Assembly (NCBI GenBank): GCA_027064425.1
Contig: JAMOPO010000027.1
Coordinates: 1-64,000 of the forward strand
Direction of reading: 5' to 3'
Origin: Methanobacteriota archaeon
Lineage (GTDB): Archaea; JAADCQ01; Methanopyri; Methanopyrales; Methanopyraceae
DNA length: 64,000 bases
In this document: positions 31,455-52,820 of the stretch, one piece after another
How the letters are laid out: the number at the start of each line of letters is the position of its first letter
Numbering within the stretch: the first letter of the stretch is position 1
Made by a program: the position numbers and the translations under genes
The notes under the pieces: model-generated
Databases searched by the model: none
Seen by the model: only the letters and a program-made list of their open reading frames with translations
What the model was told of the DNA's origin: nothing

Positions 31455-32028
31455 GCGCGTCGGCCGCGTTACCATCGCCCTGTACAACTCGTACGACCCG
31501 AGCCGGTACCATGAGATCCACACCCGGATGATCGCCCGAGCAGCCCCACTGTGCGTGGCGTACGACTTCAAGCTCGCGCTGCTCGGCTTCCCCCTGGACG
31601 ACGTCGGCGTGGAGACGCCGCGGGAGCTGGCGGAGCTCGTCGCCGAGGAGACGACCATCGGCGCCTCCGGCAGGGAGGTCCTGGAGCTCGCCGAGCGCAA
31701 CCACCTGGAGATTTACGACTACCCGGACCCCGGGTTCCCACCGCAGCTGGGGACTATCGTCGCCACGACCTGCCGCCCCGACCCCCGGAAGTCGATCGAG
31801 CCGGAGGACGTGGTGGAGCTCGTCCTGAAACCCCGGTCTGTGACCCTGGTGTTTGGACTGGGCCGACGCGGACTGCCGGACGAGGTGCTGGAGCAGGCCG
31901 AGTACCACCTGGACATCACCGGGCGGGGGATCTCGCTGGAGACGTCGACCGCGATCGGCGCCGTGACGGCCGTCGTCGGCCACCTGCTGAAGAGGAGGCT
32001 GGAGCCCGACCCGGCTAAACGTTATTGA
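31444..32028 (+). CDS. DUF531 family, SPOUT-like RNA methyltransferase
   Basis: TIALYNSYD, GLGRRGLP, HLDITG..ISLETSTAIG. Confidence 0.85.
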   Translation: MGPRRVGRVTIALYNSYDPSRYHEIHTRMIARAAPLCVAYDFKLALLGFPLDDVGVETPRELAELVAEETTIGASGREVLELAERNHLEIYDYPDPGFPPQLGTIVATTCRPDPRKSIEPEDVVELVLKPRSVTLVFGLGRRGLPDEVLEQAEYHLDITGRGISLETSTAIGAVTAVVGHLLKRRLEPDPAKRY

Positions 32029-32038
32029 ACTCGAAACG
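32020..32038. repeat. 19-bp palindromic element, copy 1 (degenerate), 3' of tRNA-Trp
   Basis: Minus strand GAAT-CGTTTCGA-GTT-CAATAACG. Confidence 0.6.
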
Positions 32039-32046
32039 ATTCGGGC

Positions 32047-32202
32047 TGGTGGGCCCGCCGGGATTTGAACCCGGGTCACGGGGTGTCTTCGACCCGCCTC
32101 ATCGCTCCAAGGGGCTCCACACCAGAGCCCCGGCACACCCCATGCCAGTCATCGGCGGGCCCCTGGAGCCCCGCATGATAGACCAGGCTACACCGCGGGC
32201 CC
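32047..32202 (-). tRNA. trnW: tRNA-Trp(CCA) with 78-nt intron (32085-32162); C8; encoded CCA
   Basis: GGGCCCG-C8-GGTGTAGCCTGG...CGGGG-CT-CCA-G|intron|A-CCCCG...TTCAAAT...CGGGCCC-A-CCA; bulge-helix-bulge junction. Confidence 0.96.
32085..32162 (-). ncRNA. Intron-encoded C/D-box guide RNA of pre-tRNA-Trp
   Basis: GCCCGCC/GGCGGGT stem, C-like GATGAC, D-like ATGA; guides GGGGTGT and CCTTGGAGC are complementary to the tRNA's own anticodon arm. Confidence 0.8.
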
Positions 32203-32231
32203 GACACCCAGGCCGGGGCGACCCCAGCCGA

Positions 32232-32242
32232 ATACTTAAGCG
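32232..32242 (-). promoter_or_regulatory. TATA-like promoter of tRNA-Trp
   Basis: CGCTTAAGTAT on the minus strand, ~30-40 nt upstream of the tRNA. Confidence 0.55.
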
Positions 32243-32255
32243 TTGCCCCGACCTA

Positions 32256-32274
32256 CGTTACGAGGCTCGCAACG
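32256..32274. repeat. 19-bp palindromic element, copy 2
   Basis: CGTTACGA-GGC-TCGCAACG. Confidence 0.75.
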
Positions 32275-32302
32275 ATACGCGGCGGGGCGATGAACCCTGA
32301 CG

Positions 32303-32441
32303 TCGCCAGTCGGCACGCTTCGGGCGTCCCGGGAGTCCTGGAGGCCCCGTGATACACACTTCAACCAGACTCATCGGGTGCGCCGTGGTTCCCCTCCCGC
32401 GAGCCCGCCGGAGTCGGTTCCCCCGCGGCTCCGCTGGCGAC
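32303..32441. ncRNA. Unassigned rod-like structured RNA candidate
   Basis: Nested stems GTCGCCAG/CTGGCGAC, CGGGC..CGGGAG/CTCCCG..GCCCG, CCCG(A)TGA/TCACGGG in a gap with no credible ORF. Confidence 0.5.
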
Positions 32442-32487
32442 TGGCCCCCGGCCGGGACGTCCCCCTGCGGCCCCGTCGGGCCGGGAC

Positions 32488-32506
32488 CGTTCTGGGCGTC
32501 GCAACG
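32488..32506. repeat. 19-bp palindromic element, copy 3 (degenerate)
   Basis: CGTTCTGG-GCG-TCGCAACG followed by AT. Confidence 0.55.
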
Positions 32507-32564
32507 ATGCGCCCAGGCCCAATTTAGTCGACGGTTCGAGGGATCCATCCGGGGGGAGGCCGGG

Positions 32565-33482
32565 ATGCTCCACGGTCGCGTGGAAGAGGTGCTCCGGAAG
32601 CAGGGTTACGGTCTCGTGGGCAAGCATTCGGCCGTGAAGCCCTGCCACTGGTGCCGGGAGGCGATCAAGAACGGGCGGCACTGCTACAAGGCCAAGTTCT
32701 ACGGGGTGGAGAGCCATCGCTGCCTTCAGATGACGCCCACGGTCGCGTGGTGTCAGCAGCGGTGCGTGTACTGCTGGAGGCCCGTCGAGCTAACGGAGGG
32801 GACCGACGACGTTCCGGACCCGGACGACCCGGATCTGATCGTGGAGAGAAGCGTCGAGGAGCAGCGGCGCTTCCTGCAGGGCTACGGTCATCTGGAGGGT
32901 GAGGCGCGGAGGCGGTGGAAGGAGGCGATGGAGCCGCGGCACGCGGCGATCAGCCTGGCGGGCGAGCCCACGCTGTACCCGCGCATCGGGGAGCTCATCG
33001 ACGCGTTCCACTCGCACGGATTCAAGACGACTTTCCTGGTCACTAACGGCCTGCGGCCCGACCGGATCGAGTCGTTAGAGCGCGAACCCACCCAGCTGTA
33101 CGTGTCCCTGGACGCGCCCAACGAGGACCTGCATCGCCGGATTAACCGGCCGATGGTGCCGGACTCCTGGGAGCGGATCCGCCAGACCCTGGAGCTGCTG
33201 AGCTCCCTCAGCTGTCGTACCGTAATTCGGATCACCGCGATCAAGGGGTGGAACATGGACGGGACGGCGGAGGAGTTCGGCCGGCTGCTGGCCGAGGTGG
33301 AGCCGGACTACGTCGAGGTCAAGGGGTTCATGTGCGTGGGATGGGCGGCGTTCCGGATGACGCCGGACAACATGCCCAGCCACGAGGAGGTGAAGGAGTT
33401 CGCCGCCGAGATCGCCGAGCACGCCGGGTTCGAGCTCGTGGACGAGTCGCCACCCAGCCGCGTCGCCCTCCTGTCCTCCTAG
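32565..33482 (+). CDS. taw1: 4-demethylwyosine synthase (radical SAM, Taw1/TYW1)
   Basis: HSAVKPCHW, CYKAKFYG.ESHRCLQMTP, CQQRCVYCWR, AISLAGEP. Confidence 0.95.
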   Translation: MLHGRVEEVLRKQGYGLVGKHSAVKPCHWCREAIKNGRHCYKAKFYGVESHRCLQMTPTVAWCQQRCVYCWRPVELTEGTDDVPDPDDPDLIVERSVEEQRRFLQGYGHLEGEARRRWKEAMEPRHAAISLAGEPTLYPRIGELIDAFHSHGFKTTFLVTNGLRPDRIESLEREPTQLYVSLDAPNEDLHRRINRPMVPDSWERIRQTLELLSSLSCRTVIRITAIKGWNMDGTAEEFGRLLAEVEPDYVEVKGFMCVGWAAFRMTPDNMPSHEEVKEFAAEIAEHAGFELVDESPPSRVALLSS

Positions 33483-33846
33483 GCGCGTACTCACCCCGGG
33501 CGACTCCGCGGCAATGAGTTTAGGGCGCGCTACCCTCGCCCCGGACTCGACTCTGATGGCCAGTGCTAGGCGGGTCGAGCGCCCGGCGCGCTAACGACGC
33601 GGCGGTCAGGCTCGGGGCATCGGGCCGGCCGAGGTCGGTGTGCACGCGTCTGGCACCGTGTCCGCGGCTGCGGGCGCGCCGATCCGGCTGTCGCCGGAGC
33701 CGCGGGCGCCGCCGGGCTACCCCCCCGCGCCAAGGGGCTCGTCACCGCAGAATCGGGAGGATCGAGCCCGGGAGGACTCCGCTGCGAACTGCCGCGTGGC
33801 TTACCCGGTTCTTGATGTTCCGGAAACACCTTTGGAGGGAAGTCGG

Positions 33847-34770
33847 ATGATCGTCCGGCTGGCCTGGGCGGTGATGGACTTCCTGGTGACGGTGCTGAAG
33901 GTGGCTCCGATGGTCTTCCTGGGCTTCTTCGCGGCCTCGCTGATGACGGGGTTGAGGGTACACGAGAGGATGGGTAGGCTGCTGGGAGACCGGCTGGCGG
34001 GCTGGGGACTCACCCCGGAGGCCGCCTCGGCGCTGGCGGCCTCACTGGTGAGTCCAAGCGCCAGCTACCCGATGCTCGCGGAGCTTCAGCGGGATGGGCG
34101 GCTGGACGATCGGGACGTGGTGCTGCTGGTCGTGGCGACGACGCTCCCGACGACGGTCGGCGAGATGCTCCTCAAGGGACCCCTCTTCGCGGCCCTGGCG
34201 ATCCTGGGCCCGAAGCTCGGCCTGGAGTACGTGGGCGCGCTCCTGCTCTCGGCCTCGATTCAGACCGTGCCGGCCCTGTTGGTCTACGGTCGACGAAGGT
34301 CCCGCGCGGGTGGTTCACCCGACGTGCCGGTCGGTCCCGGAGCCGCCCAGCCGGTGAGGGAGGTCGTGAGGAGTGCGCTGCGAAGGGCGGCGCGGCGCAT
34401 GGCTCACGTGCTCCCGCGGATGATCGGGGTGGGCGCGCTGACCGTGGTGTTGGCCGAGCTCGTCCGGTGGCACGTTCGAGGCGGGTTCGGCCCGGTGCTG
34501 GCCACGGTGCTGGCCAACCTGAGCCACTACACCGTTGGGTACGCGACGGTGGCCGAGTTCGTCCGCCGGGGAATGCTCTCGGAGCGGGAGGCGGTCGCGG
34601 CGCTGCTGATCGCCGGCTGTGCGAACGTGCTGGCGATCTTCCTGCGCGCGTCGCTGGCCACGTACGTGTCGATCTTTGGGGGTCGGCTGGGAGTTAAGGT
34701 GTGGGCGGCGAACCTGGGGACGAGTATCGGGGCGAGGTTGCTGGTGGCCGGACTGCTGCTGCTGGCGTGA
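33847..34770 (+). CDS. Polytopic membrane protein (nucleoside-recognition/Gate domain-like)
   Basis: GGAGGG RBS; two hydrophobic halves. Confidence 0.7.
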   Translation: MIVRLAWAVMDFLVTVLKVAPMVFLGFFAASLMTGLRVHERMGRLLGDRLAGWGLTPEAASALAASLVSPSASYPMLAELQRDGRLDDRDVVLLVVATTLPTTVGEMLLKGPLFAALAILGPKLGLEYVGALLLSASIQTVPALLVYGRRRSRAGGSPDVPVGPGAAQPVREVVRSALRRAARRMAHVLPRMIGVGALTVVLAELVRWHVRGGFGPVLATVLANLSHYTVGYATVAEFVRRGMLSEREAVAALLIAGCANVLAIFLRASLATYVSIFGGRLGVKVWAANLGTSIGARLLVAGLLLLA

Positions 34771-34778
34771 TCGAGGGG

Positions 34779-34790
34779 TGAACTTTATAG
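34779..34790 (+). promoter_or_regulatory. TATA box upstream of alba
   Basis: TGAACTTTATAG. Confidence 0.55.
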
Positions 34791-34849
34791 CGTCCGCTCA
34801 GGGCGCGAAACCGCGCTAAAGGCGCAAAGCGGCGCGAGGGGTGGTTTCG

Positions 34850-35134
34850 ATGGCGGAAGAGGAGAACGTCATCTACGTCGGCAACAAGCCCGTGACCAAC
34901 TACGTGCTCGCCGTGATGACGCAGTTCAGTGAGGGCGCCGACGAGGTCAAGCTGGTGGCCAGGGGCCGGGCCATCAGCCGGGCCGTCGACGTCGCCGAGT
35001 TCATCAGGAACAACGTCATGCCGGAGGTGGAAGTGAAGGACATTGAGATCGGCACCGAGGAGATCGAAACGGAGGAAGGAGACACGATCAGCGTGTCCAC
35101 GATCGCCATTACGCTGGTTAAGCCCTCGGAGTAA
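34850..35134 (+). CDS. albA: Chromatin protein Alba
   Basis: [12 protein letters not shown]...[14 protein letters not shown]. Confidence 0.97.
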
Positions 35135-35166
35135 GCCCCTCCTTCCTCCCACGCCCCCTTACGAGG

Positions 35167-35982
35167 GTGCCCTTCTTGTCGCTTAAAGTTGAGGACGTGA
35201 TGACGGAAGACCCGGTCACGGTCGACGCGGACCAGTCCCTCAAGTTCGCCCTCCGCACGATGGAACGCGAGCGGGTCAACCGGCTCCTCGTGACCGAGCG
35301 CGTCTCTGAGGGTCGGAAGGAGCTAGTTGGGATCATCACCGTCCTCGACGCCGCGCTCGCGGTTGCCGACGCGCGCTTCGGTGACGTCCCGCCGTCGCGG
35401 ATTAAGGTCTCCGAGGTCATGACCTCGCCCGTCGTGACCATTTCCCCGGACGCGACCGTGGACCAGGCGATCAAGACGATGCTCTCCCACGGGATCTCCG
35501 GCCTGCCCGTCCTGGACGGGGACCGGCTCGTCGGCATCGTCACCAAGACCGACCTGCTCGACCTGGTCGAGTCCGAGGACTACGTCGCCCTGCACATGAC
35601 CAAAAACCCCGTTACGGTGTCCGCGGGGGCCAGCCTGCTCCACGCTCGCCGGCTGATGTTCGAGGAGGGCGCGAAGGTCCTTCCCGTCGTGGAGCGTGAG
35701 CGCCTGTCGGGCCTCCTCACAGATAGGACTTTGGCCGTGGAACTGGCGCGGCTGAGGGAGAAAACGCCCAAGGGTAAGTTCAAGTCGAGGCTGAAGCGGG
35801 TGCTCGTGGACGACGTCATGCGCCCACCGGTGGCGGTTAGGACGGACTTCGGCCTGGTGGACGCGGCGGAGCTGATCGCGCGGAAGCGCGTGCCGGGCCT
35901 GCCCGTGGTTAACTACCGGGATGAGGTGGTCGGGGTGATCACCAAGACGGACCTCCTCCGGACCCTGGTGGAGGGAACCTAG
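35167..35982 (+). CDS. CBS-domain protein (4 CBS)
   Basis: Repeated VMT..PVTV and LPV...GIVTKTDL motifs. Confidence 0.92.
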   Translation: MPFLSLKVEDVMTEDPVTVDADQSLKFALRTMERERVNRLLVTERVSEGRKELVGIITVLDAALAVADARFGDVPPSRIKVSEVMTSPVVTISPDATVDQAIKTMLSHGISGLPVLDGDRLVGIVTKTDLLDLVESEDYVALHMTKNPVTVSAGASLLHARRLMFEEGAKVLPVVERERLSGLLTDRTLAVELARLREKTPKGKFKSRLKRVLVDDVMRPPVAVRTDFGLVDAAELIARKRVPGLPVVNYRDEVVGVITKTDLLRTLVEGT

Positions 35983-38019
35983 TTGTCACTCGTCGGGATC
36001 GACATCGGCGGCACTTTCACCGACCTCGTCGAGTACGACGGCCGGCGCCTCCGGGTCAAAAAGGTGCCCTCTTCACCCCGGCGGCCCGAGCGGGCCTTCA
36101 AGCGCGCCCTGTCGGAGGTGAAAGGGTCACCGGACGCCGTCCTTCACGCGACCACGATCGGCACGAACGCGTTCCTGGGGCAGCGCGGGCTCGAGCTTCC
36201 GAAGGTCGCCCTAATCACCACGCTCGGCTTCCGGGACCTCATCGAGATCGGTCGCCAGGTCCGGCCCCAAATGTACACCCTGGAGCCCAGGAAGCCCGAG
36301 CCGCTGGTCCCGCGCAGCCTGAGATTCGAGGTCAAGGAGCGGGTGTCCCCGGACGGCGAGGTGATCGTCCCGGTGGACGAGGACGGGCTCCGGGAGATCG
36401 CTCGAGAACTGCGCTCGAGGAACGTTCGCGTGGTCGTCATCTCCTTCCTGCACGCGTACGCGAACCCCGAGAACGAGAAGCGGGCGAAAGAAGTGCTGAG
36501 AAAGGAGCTCGGCGATGAGGTGGAGATCGTCTGCTCCCACGAGGTGTGCCGGGAGTACCGGGAGTACGAGCGCACGTCCACGGCGTTGGTGAACGCGGTC
36601 CTGCGCCCGCTGGTGAGCGAGTACGTGGAGCGAACGCGCGAGGCCGTCCGGAAGGCGGGCGCCTCGGATTACCTCCTGATGCAGTCTGACGGGTACGCGG
36701 TGCCGGCGGAGCGTGTCATACACACTCCGGCCAAGCTGATCGAGTCGGGACCGGCCGCCGGGGTGGTGGCGACGCGGGTCGTGGGCGAGTGGCTGGGCGA
36801 GTCCCGGCTTATATCGTTCGACATGGGCGGGACGACGGCGAAGGCGGGGACGGTCGTTGACGGGCGCTACGAGGTGACTAAGGAGTACGAGGTGGGCGGC
36901 GAGACTCACCGCGGTCGGCGCATCCGGGGCTCCGGGTACCCGGTGCTGCACCGGTTCGTCGACCTGACCGAGTGCAGCGCGGGCGGCGGGACGATCGTCT
37001 GGGTGGACGAGGCCGGCGCGCTGCGCGTCGGGCCCATCAGCGCCGGTGCGGATCCCGGCCCGGTGTGTTACGGGAAGGGCGGCGCTGACCCGACGATCAC
37101 TGACGCCAACGTGACGCTGGGCCGGCTGAACCGGAAGGCGTTGTTAGGAGGCGAGATGCCCATCGACGCGGGGGCGGCGGACCGAGCGTTCAAAGGTCTA
37201 GCGGAGGCCGTGGGCGACGAGCCCGAGGAGGTGGCCTACCAGGCCATTCGGCTCGCGGTGGAGGAGATGGCGCGCATCGTCCGCATCGTCACCGTGGAGC
37301 GGGGGCACGATCCTCGGGACTTCTCCCTGGTGGCCTTCGGCGGGGCGGGCCCACTCCACGCGGCCGAGCTGGCGGAGGTGCTGGGCGTCCAGCGCGTGAT
37401 CGTGCCGCAGCACCCCGGCGTCTTCTCGGCGTTCGGGCTGCTGGCCGCTGAGACGGCCTGGGAGCACGTGGTCCCGGTGCTGAAGTCCACGGGGGAGCTG
37501 GAGGACGAGGAGCTGGAGCGCGCGATAAGCGAGGCCGTGTCGCGCGCCTCGAAGGTACTGCCCGGCGAGCCGGACGAGGTGCGAGTTATCGTCGAGGCCC
37601 GGTATCAGGGCCAGGCTCACGAGCTGGACGTCGACGTGGAACCCAAGACCTCGGTGAAGGACGTGGAGGAGGCGTTCCACGCCCGCCACGAGGCCGTGCA
37701 CGGGTTCCGTCTGGACGCTCCGGTTGAGATCGTGAACGTGCGGGCCGTGGCCGTCGCCCGCCGGGAGCCCCCGAGGCCGGAGCCGCTGAAGGAAGGGGGA
37801 GAGGAGAACCCGGACCGGGCGGTGAACGAGCGCCGGGAGGTTTACTTCGAGGACGAGGGGTTCGTGGAGGCCCCCGTCTTCGACCGAGGGCGGCTCCGGG
37901 CGGGGGATGAGATCGAGGGGCCCGCGGTCATTGAGGAGTACGACTCCACGACGCTCGTTCCGCCGGGGTGGAGGGCGCGCGTCCACGAGTTAGGCGCCCT
38001 GATTCTGACCCGGGAGTGA
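35983..38019 (+). CDS. Hydantoinase A/5-oxoprolinase alpha family protein
   Basis: IDIGGTFTD, HATTIGTN, ESGPAAG, DMGGTT, SAGADPGP, FGGAGPLH. Confidence 0.92.
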   Translation: MSLVGIDIGGTFTDLVEYDGRRLRVKKVPSSPRRPERAFKRALSEVKGSPDAVLHATTIGTNAFLGQRGLELPKVALITTLGFRDLIEIGRQVRPQMYTLEPRKPEPLVPRSLRFEVKERVSPDGEVIVPVDEDGLREIARELRSRNVRVVVISFLHAYANPENEKRAKEVLRKELGDEVEIVCSHEVCREYREYERTSTALVNAVLRPLVSEYVERTREAVRKAGASDYLLMQSDGYAVPAERVIHTPAKLIESGPAAGVVATRVVGEWLGESRLISFDMGGTTAKAGTVVDGRYEVTKEYEVGGETHRGRRIRGSGYPVLHRFVDLTECSAGGGTIVWVDEAGALRVGPISAGADPGPVCYGKGGADPTITDANVTLGRLNRKALLGGEMPIDAGAADRAFKGLAEAVGDEPEEVAYQAIRLAVEEMARIVRIVTVERGHDPRDFSLVAFGGAGPLHAAELAEVLGVQRVIVPQHPGVFSAFGLLAAETAWEHVVPVLKSTGELEDEELERAISEAVSRASKVLPGEPDEVRVIVEARYQGQAHELDVDVEPKTSVKDVEEAFHARHEAVHGFRLDAPVEIVNVRAVAVARREPPRPEPLKEGGEENPDRAVNERREVYFEDEGFVEAPVFDRGRLRAGDEIEGPAVIEEYDSTTLVPPGWRARVHELGALILTRE

Positions 38020-38036
38020 TCCGCCCAGGCGCCGAT

Positions 38037-38055
38037 CGTTTTGATAATCAGAACG
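38037..38055. repeat. 19-bp palindromic element, copy 4, 3' of tRNA-Cys
   Basis: AT-CGTTTTGA-TAA-TCAGAACG-AT. Confidence 0.8.
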
Positions 38056-38063
38056 ATTCCCGG

Positions 38064-38139
38064 TGGAGCCGCGGCCGGGATTTGAACCCGGGTTACGGGA
38101 TCTGCAGTCCCGCGCCCCGCCAGGCTAGGCTGCCGCGGC
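38064..38139 (-). tRNA. trnC: tRNA-Cys(GCA); C8; U73; encoded CCA
   Basis: GCCGCGG-C8-A-GCCTAGCCTGG...CGGGA-CT-GCA-GA-TCCCG...TTCAAAT...CCGCGGC-T-CCA. Confidence 0.96.
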
Positions 38140-38172
38140 CTCGGTGGGGCCGTGCGTGCGCACCCGGCCCCC

Positions 38173-38189
38173 AGTTTTAAGTCTTTCCC
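38173..38189 (-). promoter_or_regulatory. BRE/TATA promoter of tRNA-Cys
   Basis: GAAAGACTTAAAA, near-identical to the tRNA-Ile promoter GAAAGACTTAATA. Confidence 0.7.
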
Positions 38190-39629: not shown

Positions 39630-39636
39630 CGGCGGT

Positions 39637-44346: not shown

Positions 44347-45579
44347 TCATTGGGATACGAAGATGCTTTCGATAGGGGCGTTGATGCGCTCGATCCACCT
44401 GGACATCAGCTCGGACACCCTGCGTACGTCCTCCTCCTCGACCCTGTCAGACAGCCTCAGACGGGCGTGGGCCCGGGCCAGCAGCAGCATGGTCCGCTCT
44501 ATCCTCCTCTTGGACGGGCCCCAGCTGGAGGCCCTGGACAGCTCCGAGGCCCGAGACGACACCATCCTCACGACGCTCGACGAACACCTCGGCCCCTCGA
44601 CCCGAGAGGCACACTTCAGCAGCGCCCTGACGTCCTCCTCCCTGATTCGTCTCCCGCTGACCCTCTCCGGGTAAGGATCCGGCCACAGGATCAGGTCCAC
44701 GCTCCTCAGCGCGGCTCCGGGGATCTTCAGGCAGGTGAGGGCGGGGTGCTCGTCTGGTGAGGACTCCAGCGCGCAGATGACGGAGCATCGGACCCCGAAC
44801 CGGACGCCGGAGACCGGGATCACGCCACGCCGGGTTAGGGAGAGCAGCTCCAGGAGTTTGGGATCGTGCGGATCGACGCCGTCGGCGATCAGCAGGCCGT
44901 CGTTGGCCAGCATCGGAACACCGGCCTCGAACCTCCACCCGGTCTCGGTAACCGTCAAGTCCCCTCGGAGGTTCCGGGAGCTGGCGGACCTCAGGTTTAC
45001 CTTGTGGGCCTGGGGCGAGAGCCGCCGGATCCGCTCCGTGACCGCACGCGCGACCCGCGGAGGGGCCAGGAAGAGCGCGCTCGCAGCCGCGCCGCCCACC
45101 GGGGTGACCATCAGCAGTGCCAAGAGCTCATAGCATGGCTCCGGCCTCCTCCGAGGCGAGAGAACGCTCGCGCACGCCTCGAGCGGGTCGTCATCCGAGA
45201 GCTCCTGGGCCGCAACCATCTCCTCAGGTGAGGGGGAGGGGTCCGACTCGACGGGTCTGACGTCGATGGCCACAACCTCGCCGCGGTCGTTGCGCCCGCC
45301 CAGCACCAGAACCTCACGACCGGGCCGCAGGAGGTCCGGGGCCACCCTGACCGACGGCCTCACGGGGACCGTCTCGCCCTCCTCCGTTAGCAGCTTGAAC
45401 CCGCGGACGTGTTCCACCCCCTCCACGGACTTGACGCGGCCGCGCACGACGACCGGCGCCAAATTCCTCAGCTCGAGTGAGCTGGGGGCTGAATCCTCGG
45501 GAACGCTGTCCTGAGGGACGTCCAGCTCGGACAGCCGCCGCAGCGCGTCAGCCGTCAGGTCCTCGTCCGCGTCCTCCAT
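44347..45579 (-). CDS. Degenerate MCM-like AAA+ protein
   Basis: OB-like N-terminus, EAGVPMLANDGLLIADG, RCSVICA, LARAHARLRL; Walker A absent. Confidence 0.7.
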   Translation of the reverse strand: MEDADEDLTADALRRLSELDVPQDSVPEDSAPSSLELRNLAPVVVRGRVKSVEGVEHVRGFKLLTEEGETVPVRPSVRVAPDLLRPGREVLVLGGRNDRGEVVAIDVRPVESDPSPSPEEMVAAQELSDDDPLEACASVLSPRRRPEPCYELLALLMVTPVGGAAASALFLAPPRVARAVTERIRRLSPQAHKVNLRSASSRNLRGDLTVTETGWRFEAGVPMLANDGLLIADGVDPHDPKLLELLSLTRRGVIPVSGVRFGVRCSVICALESSPDEHPALTCLKIPGAALRSVDLILWPDPYPERVSGRRIREEDVRALLKCASRVEGPRCSSSVVRMVSSRASELSRASSWGPSKRRIERTMLLLARAHARLRLSDRVEEEDVRRVSELMSRWIERINAPIESIFVSQ

Positions 45580-45709
45580 ACTCTCCTTGACCTTCCTCGC
45601 GCGGGCGCCGACGGGCGAGTCTCGCCAGGGTGGCTTAATCCCCTCGTCACCCCCTTGACGGGCCCGGTTTCCGAAACGCGCGCCCCGGATTTCAGTTAAT
45701 CAATTAACC

Positions 45710-46942
45710 TCACGATCCTCCGCACTCCGACGCCGGAACGAGGCCGCGACGAGACCGCAGCGCCGCGGGCAGTGGGAGCGGGACCGTGGGTAGCGGGGGC
45801 AGCCGCCTCTTCCGTTCAGCCCCACCCCCTCCCTTGACGGCAACGCCGCTCGGTGCCACGATCACGGTGACCGGGTTGCTGAACGCTGGAGCCATGAGCG
45901 GTCCCCCCTGGAACATGGCCACGTAGACGAACCGACCGGACTTCTTCGGAGTGACCCTCAGGGGCGGGGTCTTACCGTCCGGACCGGTGACCCAGCCCGC
46001 AAGGGCCGAGGCGCTCACTATCGCCCCGTTTTCCAGCAGGAAGATCCTGGCGTTCGGGACCGGGCGGCCCCTGTAATCCGTGAGCACGGCCCGGAGCTCG
46101 AACGCCCTACCACCGTCGACGGCCTTGGCGAGGAGCCTCAGCCTGACCCGCTCCCGGAACGTGCACACGGTTCTCCAGGTGGCGGGCTCGTAGAGGGGAC
46201 CGCCCGCGTACCGGACCTCGATGGCGAGGATCCCGGGCTTCTTGGGCCTGACCCACAGCTGGAACCCGCCGGCTCGGTCCGGCCGCGCGGTGATCGTCTC
46301 GCTCAGCCCGCACCCCTGAACGACCACCGTGATCGGCGCGGGGATCGGCACCCCGAACACCCCGTCCCGCAGCTCTCCCCGGATCATCACGCGCTGTCCG
46401 ATCAGGCCAACCCGTGGGAGGACCGCGACCCGCAGGCTCACCGGGAGCCTCGTTAGGAACTTCGTCAGCGGGTGGATGACGCAGTCCGGGACCCTGGCCA
46501 CCGGTCTCGAGGTTGCTCCACGGAGCTCCAACAGCAGCAGCTCGGGCCTGGTCAGGTTGTTCGGGCCGGTAATTAGCAGTCCGTAGAGGCGCAGGTACCG
46601 GCCGGTAAGACCCACGTAAGCTCGGGCCTTAATCGCGGACGACCGGGTTTTAAGCGCGCGGGCGGTGACCTCGATCCACCCTCTGGTCTCGTCGCCCACG
46701 CGGACGCGGGTGATCCATCTGACCCCGCCGTTCTCCGCGAGGACCAACCTACACCACGGCTTACCGTTCACCAGCAGGTCCACGGCCCAGCCCACTCTCG
46801 GGTCCAGCCGCAGCAGCGGGTAGTACTTCAGACCGATCGCGTAGACCGCTGCGTGGCCGGTCGCTGGAGCCGTGAACGCCGCTAACAGCACCACCGCGAG
46901 CGTCAGAGCGGTCCGAAGTATTACCCCCGAGGCGGCCGGCAC
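45710..46942 (-). CDS. Secreted protein with Ig-like repeats and Pro-rich C-terminal tail
   Basis: Signal peptide; repeats YAGGPLYEPA / FQGGPLMAPA; tail LPPLPTVPLPLPAALRSRR. Confidence 0.75.
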   Translation of the reverse strand: MPAASGVILRTALTLAVVLLAAFTAPATGHAAVYAIGLKYYPLLRLDPRVGWAVDLLVNGKPWCRLVLAENGGVRWITRVRVGDETRGWIEVTARALKTRSSAIKARAYVGLTGRYLRLYGLLITGPNNLTRPELLLLELRGATSRPVARVPDCVIHPLTKFLTRLPVSLRVAVLPRVGLIGQRVMIRGELRDGVFGVPIPAPITVVVQGCGLSETITARPDRAGGFQLWVRPKKPGILAIEVRYAGGPLYEPATWRTVCTFRERVRLRLLAKAVDGGRAFELRAVLTDYRGRPVPNARIFLLENGAIVSASALAGWVTGPDGKTPPLRVTPKKSGRFVYVAMFQGGPLMAPAFSNPVTVIVAPSGVAVKGGGGAERKRRLPPLPTVPLPLPAALRSRRGLVPASECGGS

Positions 46943-46973
46943 TCCCCGACGGACCCTCCACTGGGTAAACGGA

Positions 46974-46985
46974 AGGCATATAAGT
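46974..46985 (+). promoter_or_regulatory. TATA box in the divergent promoter region of the surface protein genes
   Basis: GGCATATAAG. Confidence 0.5.
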
Positions 46986-47036
46986 GTCTCTTCGGTCGGT
47001 CAAGTATGAGGCCGGTCGGAAGGGGGTGAGAACCCA

Positions 47037-49715
47037 GTGGCCCGCGTGGGGCCGGTAATCCTCGCGGCGTTGGCCGCTTTGTTGGCGCTCACGGGCGCCT
47101 CGGCGGCGGCGCCGCTGTCGGTTAGCCAGTCGGACGTGGTCAGGGGAGTCGTCGAGTGGGAGCTCAGCAAGGGTGTCTTCACGCCGGTGTACAGGCAGCT
47201 GGAGATCACCTCAGAGGCCGCCGTATCCAACCCGTCGACCAACCAGAAGACCTACGATGTGGTCCCTGTGGCGCGGTCGCCGTCGCTGACGGGTTTCCAG
47301 ATGCTACAGGACCCGAACGCGCAGGTGCAGGTAGCGCAGCTCAGCGACAAGGTGGTCGGTGAAACTTACGTTAAGCTGTCGCCCGGAAGCCAGGCGGCGG
47401 TCGGCTACCGGCTGGTTTGCGTCAGCCCGACCGAGGGTGAGTGGGGTCGGGTCGCTCCGGTAGTGAAGTACGACATCATGGTCAACGGAGCCCCGTGGTT
47501 CCAAACGCAGGTGTCGGGCGCCGACACCATCGCGGAGGTGATCGAGATCGCCAACCACGGCGTCCAGGTGTGGGTCGACGACGAGCAGGGAGGCACGCAG
47601 CAGGCCGGTTCGCTCTACAACCTGATGGTGCTGGTCCCGGTTGATCAGCTCTACCAGCTCAGGCAGGCCCTCGGAGTCGACTACGAGGTCACACTGTCCG
47701 TGGCCGAGAACCCGTTGAACGGGACGATCCCGAGCAATCTGCAGCCGACGGCTAGGGTCACCGTGGACGCGAACGGGAACCCGACCATCACCTTCGACCT
47801 GGACGGTGACGGCGCCTCGGACTCGTGCCTGATGATCTACACCCTGAATGGCGTTCAGTACCTGACGATCGGTGTCGACACGAACGGTGACGGTGCGGTG
47901 GACGAGCCCGCGAAGTACGCGGTGGACCCGGACTCGAAGCTCGGCGTTCGGGTGATGTACCAGCTGTCCTCGGCGCCCTCGCAGGCCGCGACGGCGCTGC
48001 TGCCGGACGTGTACCTCGAGTACGAGTACGCGTACAAGGACTCCTCAGGCAACTACGTAACGAGCGGGGTCACCGTCACCCCACCGTGGTACGTGGCCGT
48101 GCGGCCCGACGAGCTGATCGAGGTCTCGTGGGTCGGTGAGCCGCTGCAGGTGCCGTCGAACGGTGATTGGGGCAGCGTGGACTGGCAGGTCGTGCCGAGG
48201 GTGCGGAACCTGGCGGAGTTCGGGGTCTACCTGCAGCAGGTCAACGTTTACGGACTGTCGAGCGCGGACCTAGTCAACGGGTGGACGCTGGTGCAGTCGT
48301 TCTCGTTCAACCCGCCGAGCGACGGGCTGATCCCGGCCGGTGGTGAGTGGGTCGGGGAGGCCGTAACGATCAGCCCGGCGTCGAGCCCGATCTACGGCAG
48401 CGCGGTGTACTGGAAGATCGAGGTGCAGCTGGGCAACCCGCTGCTGGGTCAGGAGGTGGAGCTGGACAAGACCCGGGCGGCCACCGGTGAGGTCGTGGTG
48501 AAGGGTGTGGCACTACCGGTCGTGCCGCAGGGCGTCCCGGCGGTCTTCGGGCTCTCGGCGTACACCGAGCCGACGAGCGTGCAGCCGGGCACGCGGACGG
48601 TGACGTTCCACTTCAAGTTGGGCGTGGACGGGTCCGCACTGACGTCCGACTCGGTGACCGTCTCGATCTCGATCCCAACCCAGACGGCCCTGGGCGGTTC
48701 GGCCAGCTACGTCGCCGGGAGCGTGAGGGTGTACGTGTACAAGGCCGTGCAGCACTCGAACGGCACGGTGAGTCTGGTGAGGGAGGACGTCACGGGCCAG
48801 GCCAGCATCACGGAGCCGTCGAGCACGAGCAACACGCTGACGATCACGCTCGGTCCGAGCCAGGACCTGGCGTCGGTGCGGTACATCGAGGTCGTGTTCC
48901 AGGTGAACGCCGACTTCCAGTCGGGTGACGCGTACACGATCTCGGACGCCACGGTGCAGATCGGTAGCGTGAGCTACGCGTTCCCGGAGGTTCGGGTAAC
49001 GTCAACCTACGTGCCCGACGTCCCGGTGATCTCGGGTGAGAAGACGAGCTCGGGCTTCGTGGTTGAGGCGAACGGGTTCGTGAGCCCGAAGACCGGTGAC
49101 TTCGGCATGCCGATGGTGGTCGTGGATTACGTGCCGATGGCCGACGTGAAGGACACTGATGGTGACGGGCAGCCGGACATCAACGCGTTCCTGCAGAACC
49201 TGAGCGTCACCGGCCGGTGGGGTCAGACGGACATCGCGTCAGCGGAGTACGTCGGGCAGGCGTCGACGGGAGAGTACATCCTGGCGCTGAAGGACGCGAG
49301 CGGGAACGTGCTGGCGTACCTCGCGGTGAAGGTGCTGGGCACGGTAACCATCGGCAACGTTGACTACTACGCCATCCTGCTGTACAGCGTGAGCTACGAC
49401 CCGAGCTCCGGCACGATCACCGGCGTCCGGAACATGCTGCCGAACACGCAGATTCAGGTGACCTACCCGAGCACGTACTACGACCCGAACGGCGTGCCGG
49501 TGCGGTACTGGGACGAGATCCGGCTGCTGATCGCCGTGGACCCATCGTCCATCCCGATGACCCACTCGGCCGGTGGACCAACGCTGAAGGTCAGGCTGCC
49601 AACGACGGAGGGCGCGCACCAGTACAGCATCACCAAGAAGGGCAAGCGGGCGGTGCCGGTGGCCATCGCGCTGCTGGGCGCGCTGATCCCGCTGATCGCC
49701 CGCCGGCGCTTCTAA
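47037..49715 (+). CDS. Large exported cell-surface (S-layer-like) protein
   Basis: Signal peptide; Ser/Thr/Val/Gly-rich; Dx(D/N)GDG loops; C-terminal TM helix + RRRF. Confidence 0.85.
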   Translation: MARVGPVILAALAALLALTGASAAAPLSVSQSDVVRGVVEWELSKGVFTPVYRQLEITSEAAVSNPSTNQKTYDVVPVARSPSLTGFQMLQDPNAQVQVAQLSDKVVGETYVKLSPGSQAAVGYRLVCVSPTEGEWGRVAPVVKYDIMVNGAPWFQTQVSGADTIAEVIEIANHGVQVWVDDEQGGTQQAGSLYNLMVLVPVDQLYQLRQALGVDYEVTLSVAENPLNGTIPSNLQPTARVTVDANGNPTITFDLDGDGASDSCLMIYTLNGVQYLTIGVDTNGDGAVDEPAKYAVDPDSKLGVRVMYQLSSAPSQAATALLPDVYLEYEYAYKDSSGNYVTSGVTVTPPWYVAVRPDELIEVSWVGEPLQVPSNGDWGSVDWQVVPRVRNLAEFGVYLQQVNVYGLSSADLVNGWTLVQSFSFNPPSDGLIPAGGEWVGEAVTISPASSPIYGSAVYWKIEVQLGNPLLGQEVELDKTRAATGEVVVKGVALPVVPQGVPAVFGLSAYTEPTSVQPGTRTVTFHFKLGVDGSALTSDSVTVSISIPTQTALGGSASYVAGSVRVYVYKAVQHSNGTVSLVREDVTGQASITEPSSTSNTLTITLGPSQDLASVRYIEVVFQVNADFQSGDAYTISDATVQIGSVSYAFPEVRVTSTYVPDVPVISGEKTSSGFVVEANGFVSPKTGDFGMPMVVVDYVPMADVKDTDGDGQPDINAFLQNLSVTGRWGQTDIASAEYVGQASTGEYILALKDASGNVLAYLAVKVLGTVTIGNVDYYAILLYSVSYDPSSGTITGVRNMLPNTQIQVTYPSTYYDPNGVPVRYWDEIRLLIAVDPSSIPMTHSAGGPTLKVRLPTTEGAHQYSITKKGKRAVPVAIALLGALIPLIARRRF

Positions 49716-49740
49716 ACCCCTCCCTTCTTATTTCCGGAAT

Positions 49741-49759
49741 CGTTACGAACCTCGTAACG
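49741..49759. repeat. 19-bp palindromic element, copy 5 (perfect arms)
   Basis: GAAT-CGTTACGA-ACC-TCGTAACG after a pyrimidine tract following the surface-protein stop. Confidence 0.85.
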
Positions 49760-49773
49760 GGGGAGCCCGGCCC

Positions 49774-50964
49774 TTGCCGCCCGCAGCCCTCGCCTTCCTC
49801 ACGGCCTTGATCGCGCTCTCCTCTCCGGTCTCGGCGTCAACGCCCCAGAAGGTGGACATCGTCGTTGACTCGGGGAGTGGCCAGCTCCCGGACCCGCGCT
49901 ACCTGAACTCCTACCCCAACACTCCCTCGTACGACTCCCGGATCATCGTCACCACCAAATCCGGGTCCGTCGTCTGGCGGTACTCCATCTACCTCGGCAT
50001 CGTGGACGGGCGGGGGGCGACCGCCCCGGCCCCGATGATCGTGGCCCGGGTGGACGAGGGTGCGGACGGGACCTGGGACGTCGTCCTGTTCGAGGGCAGC
50101 CCGCCGAACCCGACCGTGACGCTCCCTTACACGGCCGAGTACACCGTGCCGGTCGCCCTGGAGGTCCGGGCGGACGACAACGAGGGGGATGGCGACTACG
50201 ACGACGTGGACGTGATCCTCAAGATCACCGGCACCGGGATCACGGTGGAGTGGGTGAGCGTATCCTCGGGGGTCACCCCGTGGCTGGAGGTGAAGCCCCT
50301 CACCGTCAACGCCTCTTGGGACCCCGCGGGCGGGACGCTGAGCGTTGGCACGCCGCCCGCCTACCGGTTCTCACGGTCGACCGTGAGCGTCTCGTTCCGG
50401 GACGATGGAACGGTGGTCGGCGTGGACGCGCAGGGGAACCCCTCGTACTATGACGATCCCAACGTCAGCGGGGTGGCCCCGCCGTACCTCTCGAACTTCA
50501 AGGCGCTCGTGCTGATCCCCGCCCCGGAGAACGCGGCCTCCGTGGAGCTTCAGGGATCCTTCGTCGTAACGCGGACCATCAACGACGGGTCACAGACGTT
50601 GGATGAGGGAACGTTCGACGTGACCCTGCAGCCCGGTAGCTCGGTTCAGGTCACCGGCACCAACCAGGCGGCTCAGCTGACCTTCCAGCTGGAGGCGTTC
50701 TCGTCGGGCTACGCCATCCTGCTGATCACCATGTCCGCCGACTCGGGCGGCTCGGCGGTGTTCAGCTCGGGCGACAGGTACGAGCTGACGTTCTCCAGGG
50801 TAGTCGTCTACGACTCCTCGGGCAACGCCGTGGAGATCCCACCGGACCGGGTGCTAACGCTGGCTGTGATCTTCGGCGGCGCGCCCGGAGACCGGGCGAG
50901 CGTGCTACCGTTCTCGGTCGTCGGCCTCCTCGCCCTCGCACGCCTTCTTCAGCGATCGCCATAG
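49774..50964 (+). CDS. Exported beta-rich surface protein with C-terminal membrane anchor
   Basis: Signal peptide; DDNEGDGDYDD loop; hydrophobic C-terminus. Confidence 0.8.
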   Translation: MPPAALAFLTALIALSSPVSASTPQKVDIVVDSGSGQLPDPRYLNSYPNTPSYDSRIIVTTKSGSVVWRYSIYLGIVDGRGATAPAPMIVARVDEGADGTWDVVLFEGSPPNPTVTLPYTAEYTVPVALEVRADDNEGDGDYDDVDVILKITGTGITVEWVSVSSGVTPWLEVKPLTVNASWDPAGGTLSVGTPPAYRFSRSTVSVSFRDDGTVVGVDAQGNPSYYDDPNVSGVAPPYLSNFKALVLIPAPENAASVELQGSFVVTRTINDGSQTLDEGTFDVTLQPGSSVQVTGTNQAAQLTFQLEAFSSGYAILLITMSADSGGSAVFSSGDRYELTFSRVVVYDSSGNAVEIPPDRVLTLAVIFGGAPGDRASVLPFSVVGLLALARLLQRSP

Positions 50965-51855
50965 GCGGTCGAGGAGCTCGACGCGGTCCATGGACAGCTC
51001 CAGCCTCAGCCACTCGAGCCCGTGGGCGACCTTGCCGCGCAAGGTTGCGGCGTAGGGCTTCGAGTACGGGCAGTCCGCGTTGAACGGCTCGAGCCCGGTC
51101 TCCTCCGGGACGCGGGCGGTCCACTCCTCCGGGACCCGGACGATGGGTCGCACGATCGTCGTGGGAGGGAACTCGTAGTTGACGTACCTCGAGACCATCC
51201 CTTCGAGCCGCTCCTTCGGGGGCAGGAGCTTCACTCCCTCCCCCTTCACGGCCGTCGCGAGGGCGGTGATCACCGCGTCGTCCAGCGTGTGAGCCAGAAC
51301 GATCTTCTCCGAGCGCTCCCGGAGCTCGCGCCGGCGGATCAGCGAGCAGATCAGGCAGGGGGACTCGTCGTGCTCCTCGGCCAGCTCTCCCACGTCCTCG
51401 CGCGGTCGGACGTACTCCAGCTCCAGGCCTAGGCGCCGGCAGAGCTCCTCGCAGTGCCGCCGCCCCTCGCTCCCCCAGACCTCCTCGCCGTGAAGCCTGA
51501 CGTCGATCAGGACGGGGCGGAGCCGGAGGCCCAGCCGGCGGGTGAGGGGCTCCAGCACGAGCAGGCAGGTCAGGCTGTCCTTGCCGCCGCTGAACCCGAC
51601 GGCGACTTCCTCCCGAGGCTCGAAAAGCTCATACCTGGTTATAACGCGATGGGCCCGGACCGAGGCGCGCTCGAGGGTCTTGGACCGGACGATCGTTAGC
51701 CCCGCTCGCTCCAGCCTCCGGCGCCGGCGCTCCGTGAGCTTAGCCCGGCGGGGGTTTAGCGGCACTATCACGCCCTCCTCCAGCACCGCGACGTACCGGG
51801 CGTCCACTCCCACGTCCCGGAGCTCCTCGAGCACCTCCTCGCGCCGCAACGCCAC
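50905..51855 (-). CDS. PP-loop ATPase, TtcA/TilS-like
   Basis: SGGKDS, CLICSLIRR, AHTLDD, VRP, CPY. Confidence 0.8.
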   Translation of the reverse strand: MALRREEVLEELRDVGVDARYVAVLEEGVIVPLNPRRAKLTERRRRRLERAGLTIVRSKTLERASVRAHRVITRYELFEPREEVAVGFSGGKDSLTCLLVLEPLTRRLGLRLRPVLIDVRLHGEEVWGSEGRRHCEELCRRLGLELEYVRPREDVGELAEEHDESPCLICSLIRRRELRERSEKIVLAHTLDDAVITALATAVKGEGVKLLPPKERLEGMVSRYVNYEFPPTTIVRPIVRVPEEWTARVPEETGLEPFNADCPYSKPYAATLRGKVAHGLEWLRLELSMDRVELLDRLWRSLKKACEGEEADDRER

Positions 51856-51864
51856 GACCCCGGG

Positions 51865-52506
51865 GTGATCGTCTCGCTAACGATGCTACTGATGGCCGCG
51901 AACGTGGCCGCCTACGTGGTGACGATCGGGCCGGACGGGACCATCCGACCGGACGTCGCATGGGCCTACGGGCTGTACGCCGCGAACCTGATCTACCACC
52001 CGGAGTGCCTGATAACCCACATGTTCCTGCACGCCGGACCGCTTCACCTCCTGTTCAACATGCTGGGGCTGCTCACCTTCGGTCTGCAGCTTGAGCGGAT
52101 GCTCTCCCGGGGCGAGTACCTGTTCCTGTACCTCGCCTCCGGGGTCGCGGGCGGGCTGCTCCAGGTGGTGGTGACTCCGAACATCCCCACCATCGGCGCC
52201 TCGTCGGCCGTCTTCGGCCTGGTCGGGTGCCTGACGATGCTGCGGCCGATGAGCATGATCATGTTCTTCTTCGTCCCCATGCCGCTGGTCCTGTTCTCGG
52301 TCCTGTACGCGCTGGCGGCCGTGTTCGTGATCGAGTCGGGAGCGTTCACGCACGTGGCGCACGCCGGGCACCTCGGAGGCATGCTTGCGGGCGGGGCGCT
52401 GGCCCTGCTCTACCGGCCGCGGGAGGCGCTGAAGGGGCTCGCGGCCGTGTCGGTGGTGGTCCTCCTGCTCCTGGTCGGGTACTGGATGCTGGTGGGTGGA
52501 CCGTAG
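51865..52506 (+). CDS. Rhomboid intramembrane serine protease
   Basis: HMFLH..HLLFNM, GASSA, AHAGHLGG. Confidence 0.93.
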   Translation: MIVSLTMLLMAANVAAYVVTIGPDGTIRPDVAWAYGLYAANLIYHPECLITHMFLHAGPLHLLFNMLGLLTFGLQLERMLSRGEYLFLYLASGVAGGLLQVVVTPNIPTIGASSAVFGLVGCLTMLRPMSMIMFFFVPMPLVLFSVLYALAAVFVIESGAFTHVAHAGHLGGMLAGGALALLYRPREALKGLAAVSVVVLLLLVGYWMLVGGP

Positions 52507-52509
52507 GGC

Positions 52510-52521
52510 GAAATCTTTATG
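52510..52521 (+). promoter_or_regulatory. BRE/TATA promoter of tRNA-Ala
   Basis: GAAATCTTTATG. Confidence 0.65.
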
Positions 52522-52551
52522 CTGGTCCACGCCCGGGTGCCGCCTGGAGGA

Positions 52552-52628
52552 GGGCCCGCAGCTCAGCCTGGTAGAGCGCGGCCCTGGCGCGGCCGTGGCC
52601 CCGGGTTCAAATCCCGGCGGGTCCACCA
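52552..52628 (+). tRNA. trnA: tRNA-Ala(GGC); C8; G3:U70; encoded CCA
   Basis: GGGCCCG-C8-AGCTCAGCCTGGTAGAGC-G-CGGCC-CT-GGC-GC-GGCCG...CGGGTCC-A-CCA. Confidence 0.95.
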
Positions 52629-52638
52629 AGCCGCGAAT

Positions 52639-52657
52639 CGTTATGAATCTCAAAACG
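52639..52657. repeat. 19-bp palindromic element, copy 6, 3' of tRNA-Ala
   Basis: GAAT-CGTTATGA-ATC-TCAAAACG-AT. Confidence 0.8.
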
Positions 52658-52666
52658 ATCCGGGGC

Positions 52667-52680
52667 GAAAGACTTAATAA
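52667..52680 (+). promoter_or_regulatory. BRE/TATA promoter of tRNA-Ile
   Basis: GAAAGACTTAATAA. Confidence 0.7.
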
Positions 52681-52715
52681 TTGGATCCGAGAGCGGGCCG
52701 CATGGAGCCGCGGCA

Positions 52716-52793
52716 GGGCCCGCAGCTCAGCCAGGTCAGAGCGCGGGGCTGATAACCCCGAGGTCCCGGGTTCAAATCCCGGCGGGCCCACCA
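52716..52793 (+). tRNA. trnI: tRNA-Ile(GAT); C8; encoded CCA
   Basis: GGGCCCG-C8-AGCTCAGCCAGGTCAGAGC-G-CGGGG-CT-GAT-AA-CCCCG...CGGGCCC-A-CCA. Confidence 0.97.
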
Positions 52794-52801
52794 GCTCGGA
52801 T

Positions 52802-52820
52802 CGTTACGAGAATCGTAACG
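52802..52820. repeat. 19-bp palindromic element, copy 7 (perfect arms), 3' of tRNA-Ile
   Basis: GGAT-CGTTACGA-GAA-TCGTAACG. Confidence 0.85.

Follow-up and report, generated by a model that had tools for sequence, protein, structure and literature searches.

A lineage-specific 27-bp palindrome at the 3' ends of tRNA, 5S rRNA and strongly expressed protein genes of Methanopyrus

Introduction

The DNA considered here is a stretch of 64,000 nucleotides (the window) from a Methanobacteriota archaeon of the family Methanopyraceae (contig JAMOPO010000027.1), in which an earlier note, made from the sequence alone, had pointed to a recurrent palindrome behind tRNA genes. The genome that holds the window (G000; 1.54 Mb in 57 contigs, 67.8% GC, completeness 99.17%) carries this palindrome directly 3' of every supported tRNA gene, behind the 5S rRNA gene and behind a set of protein genes with strong codon bias, where a directional C-rich box accompanies it. 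The element is kept at orthologous sites within the genus and is specific to the Methanopyrus lineage. Tentatively, and with rather less than even confidence, we regard it as a lineage-specific "end of RNA" signal, transcribed within the 3' trailer or the 3' untranslated region (UTR) and read by a putative sequence-specific protein, which would direct 3'-end formation with leaky termination.

The palindrome and its copies in the genome

The copies in the genome give the consensus gAATCGTTAYGA-RNY-TCRTAACGATTc; the element, which the earlier note had taken to be 19 bp long, thus extends over about 27 bp. The strict pattern CGTTNYGANNNTCRNAACG occurs 37 times in G000. With a matrix built from the palindrome copies and symmetrised, 107 sites reach the cut-off of 12 bits, and five first-order Markov genomes gave 0, 0, 1, 0 and 0 such sites. 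The scores are bimodal, since 51 of the 1417 predicted 3' ends of coding sequences (CDS) have a site of at least 12 bits and just one more is gained by going down to 4 bits, which rules out weak, degenerate copies behind most genes. Half-sites hardly ever occur alone: TCGTTACGA lies within a full element in 53 of its 55 occurrences in G000, and ATCGTTAYGA in all of its 71.

The conservation profile is two-fold symmetric and not translational, with positions 2 and 18 kept at 100/100%, positions 6 and 14 at 72/54%, and positions 9 and 11 as purine and pyrimidine. The symmetry therefore reaches into the spacer: among the 39 tRNA-linked copies, 36 have a purine at position 9 and 28 a pyrimidine at position 11, and the centre base alone varies freely, so that the free spacer described in the earlier note holds for that base and not for its two neighbours. 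This profile excludes a direct repeat (period 12) of two near-identical arms. A K-turn, a bulge-helix-bulge and a stem-centred dimer, judged from the sequence only, were likewise dropped, either because of the symmetric profile or because the defining GA pairs are absent. The palindrome is AT-rich against a genome GC content of about 68%, and each arm, TCGTWACGA, reads as a near-palindrome in itself.

Near-identical tRNA loci, flanks included, are found on short contigs of G000, namely C16 and C18 versus C3 for tRNA-His and C29 versus C32 for tRNA-Ser-tga. These duplicate-like loci (three for tRNA-His, two for tRNA-Ser-tga) look like assembly redundancy or strain variants; copy counts are consequently slightly inflated, and the independent loci are slightly fewer.

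Position at tRNA and rRNA genes

All 34 Rfam tRNA matches in G000, and 39 of the 43 tRNA genes called by ARAGORN, have the core of a palindrome 7-13 nt past their 3' end; none of the four calls without a palindrome is supported by Rfam. The distance is 8 nt in 25 of the 39 tRNA-linked copies and 10 nt in 8 of them. CCA is encoded in the tRNA genes, and the whole palindrome starts 4-8 bp past it. Behind the 5S rRNA gene of G000 the palindrome stands at +14 nt, and behind the 3' ends of the 16S and 23S rRNA at +86 nt and +136 nt. The motif is a reliable annotation marker of RNA-gene ends in the Methanopyrus lineage.

Oligo-T tracts are almost absent from the same places. A terminator of this type, taken as at least five T at or just past the RNA 3' end, was sought as T5 within 60 nt downstream and found at none of the 43 tRNA calls and at 2.4% of the 1417 CDS of G000, in agreement with the remark of the earlier note that the tRNA genes of the window have no oligo-T terminator.

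In some cases different tRNA genes of one genome have identical 3' trailers and identical proximal arms (L022 and L025 in the genome G002; L051, L054 and L057 in the genome G001). This identity suggests gene conversion reaching from the tRNA 3' end into the palindrome.

Position at protein genes and the C-rich companion box

Protein genes were predicted with a crude codon-usage gene finder, which gave the 1417 CDS and a coding fraction of 85%. Sixty-eight palindromes do not stand beside a tRNA gene. Of these, 35 lie 11-58 nt past a predicted stop codon and 5 near a gene start only; 9 fall inside predicted open reading frames (ORFs), mostly spurious ones that overlap tRNAs, and 19 are intergenic elsewhere. 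Within 10-40 nt of a stop codon there are 32 of 59 copies, compared with 7% of random intergenic positions.

The 37 genes ahead of a palindrome encode, among others, the thermosome, subunit A of the A-ATPase (AtpA), McrB and, weakly, McrA, as well as the ribosomal proteins S15, L7Ae and S10, EF-1beta, rubrerythrin, a polyferredoxin and PdxS. Ordinary enzymes are also represented (NrdD, TruD, ArgRS), and 12 of the 37 have no Pfam family at E<=1e-5. With codon bias as a proxy for expression, palindrome genes have a median of 0.68 bits per codon, against 0.55 elsewhere (p=1.3e-5). A matrix scan, as proposed in the earlier note, places copies 3' of tRNA genes, 5S rRNA and mcrB and not at random, and the note's wider view, that genes for stable RNAs and strongly expressed genes end in a sequence-specific element, is supported.

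Two of these copies deserve closer description. One, at G000:C26:20006, lies inside the mcrBDCGA operon, 34 nt past mcrB and before mcrD, and is present in all six genomes of the genus. The later genes of the mcr operon are needed in equal amounts. At the end of the operon after mcrA (G000:C26:23947) there are a rare T5 tract and only a weak copy of 13.0 bits. The last base of the other copy, after atpA (G000:C3:145634-145652), is also the first of the GTG with which the next gene starts; that gene is a member of the Methyltrn_RNA_2 family, and its Pfam match begins at residue 1. As the palindrome touches the start codon, this gene must be transcribed through it.

In five cases a convergent gene pair shares one palindrome. 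Between the thermosome gene and the convergent DUF131 gene, two overlapping palindromes are offset by 17 nt (G000:C3:131780 and 131797).

The sequence from the stop codon to the palindrome is C-rich and G-poor. Over its first 10 nt it consists of 62% C and 19% G, compared with 34% and 37% behind other genes, and CACGCC or ACGCCC occurs in 38% of the palindrome protein genes against 2.5-3.5% of the others. The box is directional, being present on the gene side of 13 of 30 copies and on the far side of 2 of 30. The C-rich CACGCC box thereby gives a component tied to one strand to an element that is symmetric in all other respects. As regards a general link of the palindrome to C/D-box small RNAs, a strict box pattern gave only five candidates genome-wide, two of them beside a palindrome, and Rfam gave three weak, sub-threshold C/D matches.

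Conservation and taxonomic range

Each of the five other genomes of the genus contains 3-26 copies of the strict pattern, which has no match in 25 genomes that represent one other archaeal family each. A longer exact pattern, searched in one genome of each of 185,579 species, matched 36 stretches, 32 of them in three metagenome-assembled genomes labelled Methanopyri/Methanobacteriota and the remaining 4 as single matches in unrelated bacteria. Viral contigs scanned for the palindrome contained no match.

Within the genus the element keeps its place. It stands at 30 of 31 tRNA 3' flanks in G002 and at all 11 flanks examined (of 31) in G001, and the palindromes after the thermosome gene and mcrB recur in each of the five other genomes. 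Across 28 orthologous tRNA pairs of G000 and G002, whose tRNA bodies are nearly identical, the arm cores have an identity of 0.89-1.0, the spacer 0.18-0.36 and the flanks about 0.3. Orthologous copies are kept while the spacer and the flanks are randomised, which marks the palindrome as a sequence held at fixed sites by purifying selection, in contrast to a repeat that drifts.

Reading on the transcript or on duplex DNA

According to the transcript reading, a putative protein would clamp the weak, A/U-rich inverted repeat in the nascent trailer, and the protein-RNA complex would then direct endonucleolytic 3'-end formation together with a coupled, leaky termination of transcription. The same palindrome would serve transcripts of either strand because the DNA is palindromic; at protein genes, the CACGCC box upstream of the palindrome on the sense strand would help to load the factor. 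Candidate enzymes can be named from genome content alone. FttA/aCPSF1 is encoded in G000 (909 bits), as is a protein of the RNase E/G family (64.7 bits; domain at G000:C57:139200-139493), to whose Pfam model four archaeal control genomes have no match. An RNase Z-like protein of G000 scores below the cut-off (187 versus 293 bits).

Position favours a signal that is read on the transcript. If a polymerase stalls about 11-14 bp before a bound protein, then with the palindrome starting 4-8 bp past the CCA a blocked polymerase would not finish the tRNA. The copies inside the mcr operon and at the start codon after atpA must both be crossed by transcription. Readthrough is also seen in RNA data, which consist of four small-RNA libraries of one study whose contigs were placed on a G002 region and show presence, not strand or true ends. 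Some contigs have A-tailed ends at the mature CCA ends of tRNA-Ala and tRNA-Ile. Others begin inside the palindrome of tRNA-Ile, at a branch point of the assembly graph, and continue for about 360 nt, and one contig, found in two of the four runs, leads from a tRNA-Val-like gene across its palindrome and about 125 nt further. The directional CACGCC box and the near absence of oligo-T tracts count on the same side. Finally, of the two arms the one next to the tRNA is better preserved, with 1.13 deviations versus 2.77 in the distal arm in G000 (p=4e-6) and 1.77 versus 3.52 in G002 (p=1e-5).

Other evidence weighs against this reading. Among the 690 arm pairs of 69 gene-oriented copies, 536 are Watson-Crick, 31 G.U, 39 A.C and 84 other, and the sense strand shows no preference for wobble pairs. 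The variable arm pairs of the same copies do not covary (6-14, p=0.11; 5-15, p=0.6). Between orthologues of G000 and G002, 81 pairs have changed on one side and 16 on both, 9 of the 16 with a Watson-Crick pair kept; estimated by hand, the rate of double changes is about that of independent change. The compensatory or wobble changes by which a structured RNA hairpin is recognised are thus missing from the palindrome copies. Folding prediction at 85 and 98 °C, which covered RNA alone, without salt or protein, left all 69 copies unfolded, and spacer positions 9 and 11, which are unable to pair in a hairpin, share in the two-fold symmetry. The asymmetry of the arms is weak at protein genes (2.2 versus 2.8 deviations, p=0.11), and at tRNA genes it could come partly from gene conversion, given that different tRNAs share identical trailers and proximal arms. 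In the four runs no RNA 3' end is listed in or after the palindrome, although contigs cannot show true ends, and this absence, like the lack of cover in some regions, carries no information. The sequence statistics as a whole speak for a site on duplex DNA whose reader would be a two-fold symmetric protein. Two arguments of the earlier note are supported, namely that mismatches between the arms go uncompensated and that an RNA hairpin, predicted as naked RNA at these temperatures, would be unstable.

The features of a hairpin terminator of the bacterial type are likewise missing, as the stem is A/U-rich, none of the 69 copies folds at 85 or 98 °C and there is no U tract. A GC-rich lower stem around the palindrome was discarded, the flank pairs predicted at 85 °C being close to those of flank-shuffled controls (8.4 versus 7.7 at tRNA genes; 5.87 versus 5.87 at CDS).

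The statistics thus lead to the reading preferred by the earlier note, which we consider quite possible: an operator on duplex DNA, bound by a putative lineage-specific dimeric or tetrameric protein. Where heavily transcribed units end, it would work as an insulator or would stop transcription leakily from both directions, by a pause or a roadblock; in one variant, a release factor on the C-rich RNA may assist. The symmetric, non-translational profile, the half-sites that are almost always paired, the fixed spacing without compensation or wobble bias, and an AT-richness that stands out in a genome of 68% GC and would make the RNA unstable at growth temperature are all as expected of such an operator. 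The near-palindromic arms would suit paired dimers, and one copy can serve two convergent genes, as in the five cases above. Against it stands the place of the element. With the edge of the site 4-8 bp past the CCA and a stall of 11-14 bp, truncated tRNAs would be produced, and the copies inside the mcr operon and at the start codon after atpA, together with the RNA-library contigs that cross copies, fit poorly with a tight DNA roadblock of the kind that the earlier note had envisaged. A symmetric, static site also does not predict a better-kept proximal arm or a box on the sense side only. On balance, we lean slightly towards a reading on the transcript over one on DNA.

Other explanations deserve less weight. 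It is unlikely that the palindrome is a DNA-level mark without a direct role at RNA ends, by which a putative topoisomerase or nucleoid protein would be recruited to keep supercoiling in bounds, or to remove it, downstream of the units with the heaviest transcription. Such a mark would fit copies that are enriched behind genes for stable RNAs or of strong codon bias and a sequence that is symmetric and AT-rich, and it would tolerate readthrough and positions inside operons, but it leaves the spacing of 7-13 nt at tRNA genes, the directional CACGCC box and the asymmetry of the arms unexplained. Still less probable is a factor-independent signal at which the unusual Methanopyrus RNA polymerase itself would pause or terminate, with the AT-rich palindrome in place of oligo-T. 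The near absence of oligo-T tracts and the weak RNA:DNA hybrid across the palindrome are consistent with this, as is the search for the transcription factor TFS, which yielded nothing in G000 beyond a partial match of 21 bits (G000:C15:25482-25592) and agrees with the statement, in a review (PMC7289017), that M. kandleri lacks TFS. An asymmetric polymerase, however, needs no 27-bp two-fold symmetric site with obligate paired half-sites, and the positions with readthrough speak against it as well. A selfish palindromic repeat of the REP or MITE type, spread through intergenic regions, would resemble what is seen in that about 100 extragenic palindromes, mostly 3' of genes, are confined to one lineage. 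This explanation is already disfavoured and appears highly improbable: no Y1 (RAYT-type) transposase was found in the 99.17%-complete genome (PF01797, no match), every tRNA gene has the element at a fixed place behind it, orthologous sites persist between species although their flanks diverge, and viral contigs yielded no match.

Prior description and comparison with known systems

The motif itself has already been published, contrary to the statement of the earlier note that no description was known. Tong, Schliekelman and Mrazek (2017, PMC5217627) list "CGTTA(N)9TAACG, tRNA downstream" for M. kandleri AV19 and describe it as a palindromic, organism-specific motif about 10 bp past the gene, best conserved at positions 2-5 and 15-18 and seen in similar form behind roughly half of the tRNA genes; they speculated that it is the target of a 3'-maturation enzyme. 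By that account, the palindrome treated here is the same element, as it shares the CGTTA-N9-TAACG palindrome, the location some 10 bp past tRNA genes and the restriction to Methanopyrus (PMC5217627). Our literature search found no description besides this one, and the text of the M. kandleri small-RNA paper of Su et al. (2013, PMC3695527), supplements excluded, mentions no trailer motif. Whereas the text of PMC5217627 reports tRNA genes only, and about half of these, the palindrome is found here at every supported tRNA gene in the three genomes examined, at 5S rRNA and at about 35-40 protein genes, as an element of 27 bp with a directional C-rich companion box and with conservation of orthologous sites across the genus. 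New with respect to that text are accordingly the extension to all tRNA genes, to 5S rRNA and to mRNAs, the conservation at orthologous sites, the directional CACGCC box and the near absence of oligo-T.

The element is like the oligo-T and FttA/aCPSF1-assisted terminators of Archaea in that it marks 3' ends of tRNA, rRNA and mRNA genes alike, and FttA is encoded in G000; it differs from oligo-T terminators in having no T tract and in being a palindrome of defined sequence instead of a feature of composition. Roadblock terminators such as Reb1/Nsi1 and TTF-I of RNA polymerase I and mTERF1 of mitochondria use asymmetric sites at such a distance downstream that the RNA can be completed, with RNA 3' ends about 11-16 bp upstream of the bound site and a product that is not truncated. 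Common to them and to the palindrome are a specific site just past stable-RNA genes and a possible upstream release element; the difference is that 4-8 bp separate the palindrome, itself symmetric, from the tRNA end.

Transcribed extragenic palindromes are also known from the REP/BIME elements of enterobacteria and the 3' inverted repeats of chloroplast mRNAs, which are poor terminators, act in 3'-end processing and stability and in some cases lie within operons. Palindromes 3' of genes, some of them intra-operonic, are a shared feature, and REP/BIME elements are also numerous, extragenic and mostly 3' of genes; the RAYT transposase of that system was not found here. Unlike either type, the Methanopyrus palindrome is fixed after every tRNA gene and lacks pairing covariation. 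In E. coli, RNase E cleaves just after the CCA in tRNA trailers and in the processing of 9S to 5S rRNA, at sites that are short, single-stranded and not palindromic. The encoded CCA, an A/U-rich site a few nt past tRNA and 5S ends, the occurrence within operons and the RNase E/G-family protein of G000 are similar; the palindromic nature of the site is different.

The copies of the window and their surroundings

In the window, CGTTNYGANNNTCRNAACG has five strict matches (at 32256, 38037, 49741, 52639 and 52802), with 0.00 expected from 100 shuffles, and up to two mismatches add the copies at 32020 and 32488, giving seven matches against a shuffle mean of 0.71 and a maximum of 4. All seven copies described in the earlier note were therefore recovered, and their arms are as it reported (two perfect, three with 7/8 and two degenerate). 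Its distances of 8-10 nt past tRNA-Trp, -Cys, -Ala and -Ile and of 25 nt past the stop codon of an 892-aa ORF also agree with those measured (Table 1).

Table 1. Palindrome copies and associated features in the window (positions count from its first nucleotide).
Feature	Position	Strand	Remark
Palindrome copy, 26.1 bits	32020..32038		8 nt 3' of tRNA-Trp
tRNA-Trp(cca), 78-nt intron	32047..32202	-	ARAGORN with introns allowed; in Rfam a sub-threshold tmRNA-clan match alone
Palindrome copy, 25.3 bits	32256..32274		53 nt upstream of the tRNA-Trp 5' end
Degenerate palindrome copy, 12.9 bits, marginal	32488..32506		two-mismatch search
Palindrome copy, 36.5 bits	38037..38055		8 nt 3' of tRNA-Cys
tRNA-Cys(gca)	38064..38139	-	tRNA prediction
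892-aa ORF, signal peptide and C-terminal membrane anchor	47037..49715	+	no family match
C/T-rich, G-poor spacer from stop codon to palindrome	49716..49740	+	local form of the directional C-rich tract
Palindrome copy, perfect 8-bp arms, 30.1 bits	49741..49759		25 nt past the stop of the 892-aa ORF
tRNA-Ala(ggc)	52552..52628	+	tRNA prediction
Palindrome copy, 43.2 bits	52639..52657		10 nt 3' of tRNA-Ala
AT-rich box gaaagacttaataatt in the gap from palindrome to tRNA-Ile	52667..52682	+	likely tRNA-Ile promoter, from sequence reading only
tRNA-Ile(gat)	52716..52793	+	tRNA prediction
Palindrome copy, perfect 8-bp arms, 39.8 bits	52802..52820		8 nt 3' of tRNA-Ile

Two of the tRNA-linked copies also stand at the ends of convergent protein genes. 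A predicted 205-aa CDS (31411-32028, plus strand) converges on tRNA-Trp and has its last codons and its stop inside the palindrome at 32020, and the palindrome at 38037 lies 17 nt past the stop of a convergent 678-aa CDS (35983-38019, plus strand).

The copies at 32256 and 32488 follow neither a tRNA gene nor a predicted CDS. That at 32256 is situated just outside an AT-rich, promoter-like box of tRNA-Trp and has its better-kept "AT" flank toward the minus-strand direction. Both copies are degenerate and stand 232 nt apart, with GC-rich sequence between them. Neither a folding signal on either strand (z-scores +1.2 and +0.3) nor an Rfam match was obtained for the 213 nt that end at 32487, and a structured RNA between the two copies was rejected on these grounds.

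The 892-aa ORF has no match in Pfam or NCBIfam. With this query, homologues appear as partial matches only, in three of the five other genomes of the genus, and the G002 region that was compared is not syntenic for the gene. Given these partial matches and the absence of a Pfam or NCBIfam family, its product looks like a fast-evolving surface protein. The earlier note had called it a major surface protein; a surface location is plausible from the predicted signal peptide and membrane anchor, whereas "major" is not supported.

Significance

To our knowledge, how archaeal transcripts end without an oligo-T tract is an open question. G000, almost devoid of oligo-T and belonging to a lineage which, according to the review PMC7289017, has no TFS, is a setting in which a palindrome of this kind matters. 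A single sequence of 27 bp, easy to synthesise, stands behind the 5S rRNA gene, all tRNA genes and some 40 genes of strong expression, and hence offers a direct experimental handle. It is possible, if doubtful, that at the genes it uses most heavily Methanopyrus has given up oligo-T terminators for a private, sequence-specific 3'-end system made up of the 27-bp palindrome, the CACGCC box at protein genes and a putative two-fold symmetric protein that would read either the DNA or the nascent RNA. If this were true, the putative reader would be the first sequence-specific factor for termination or 3'-end formation known in Archaea.

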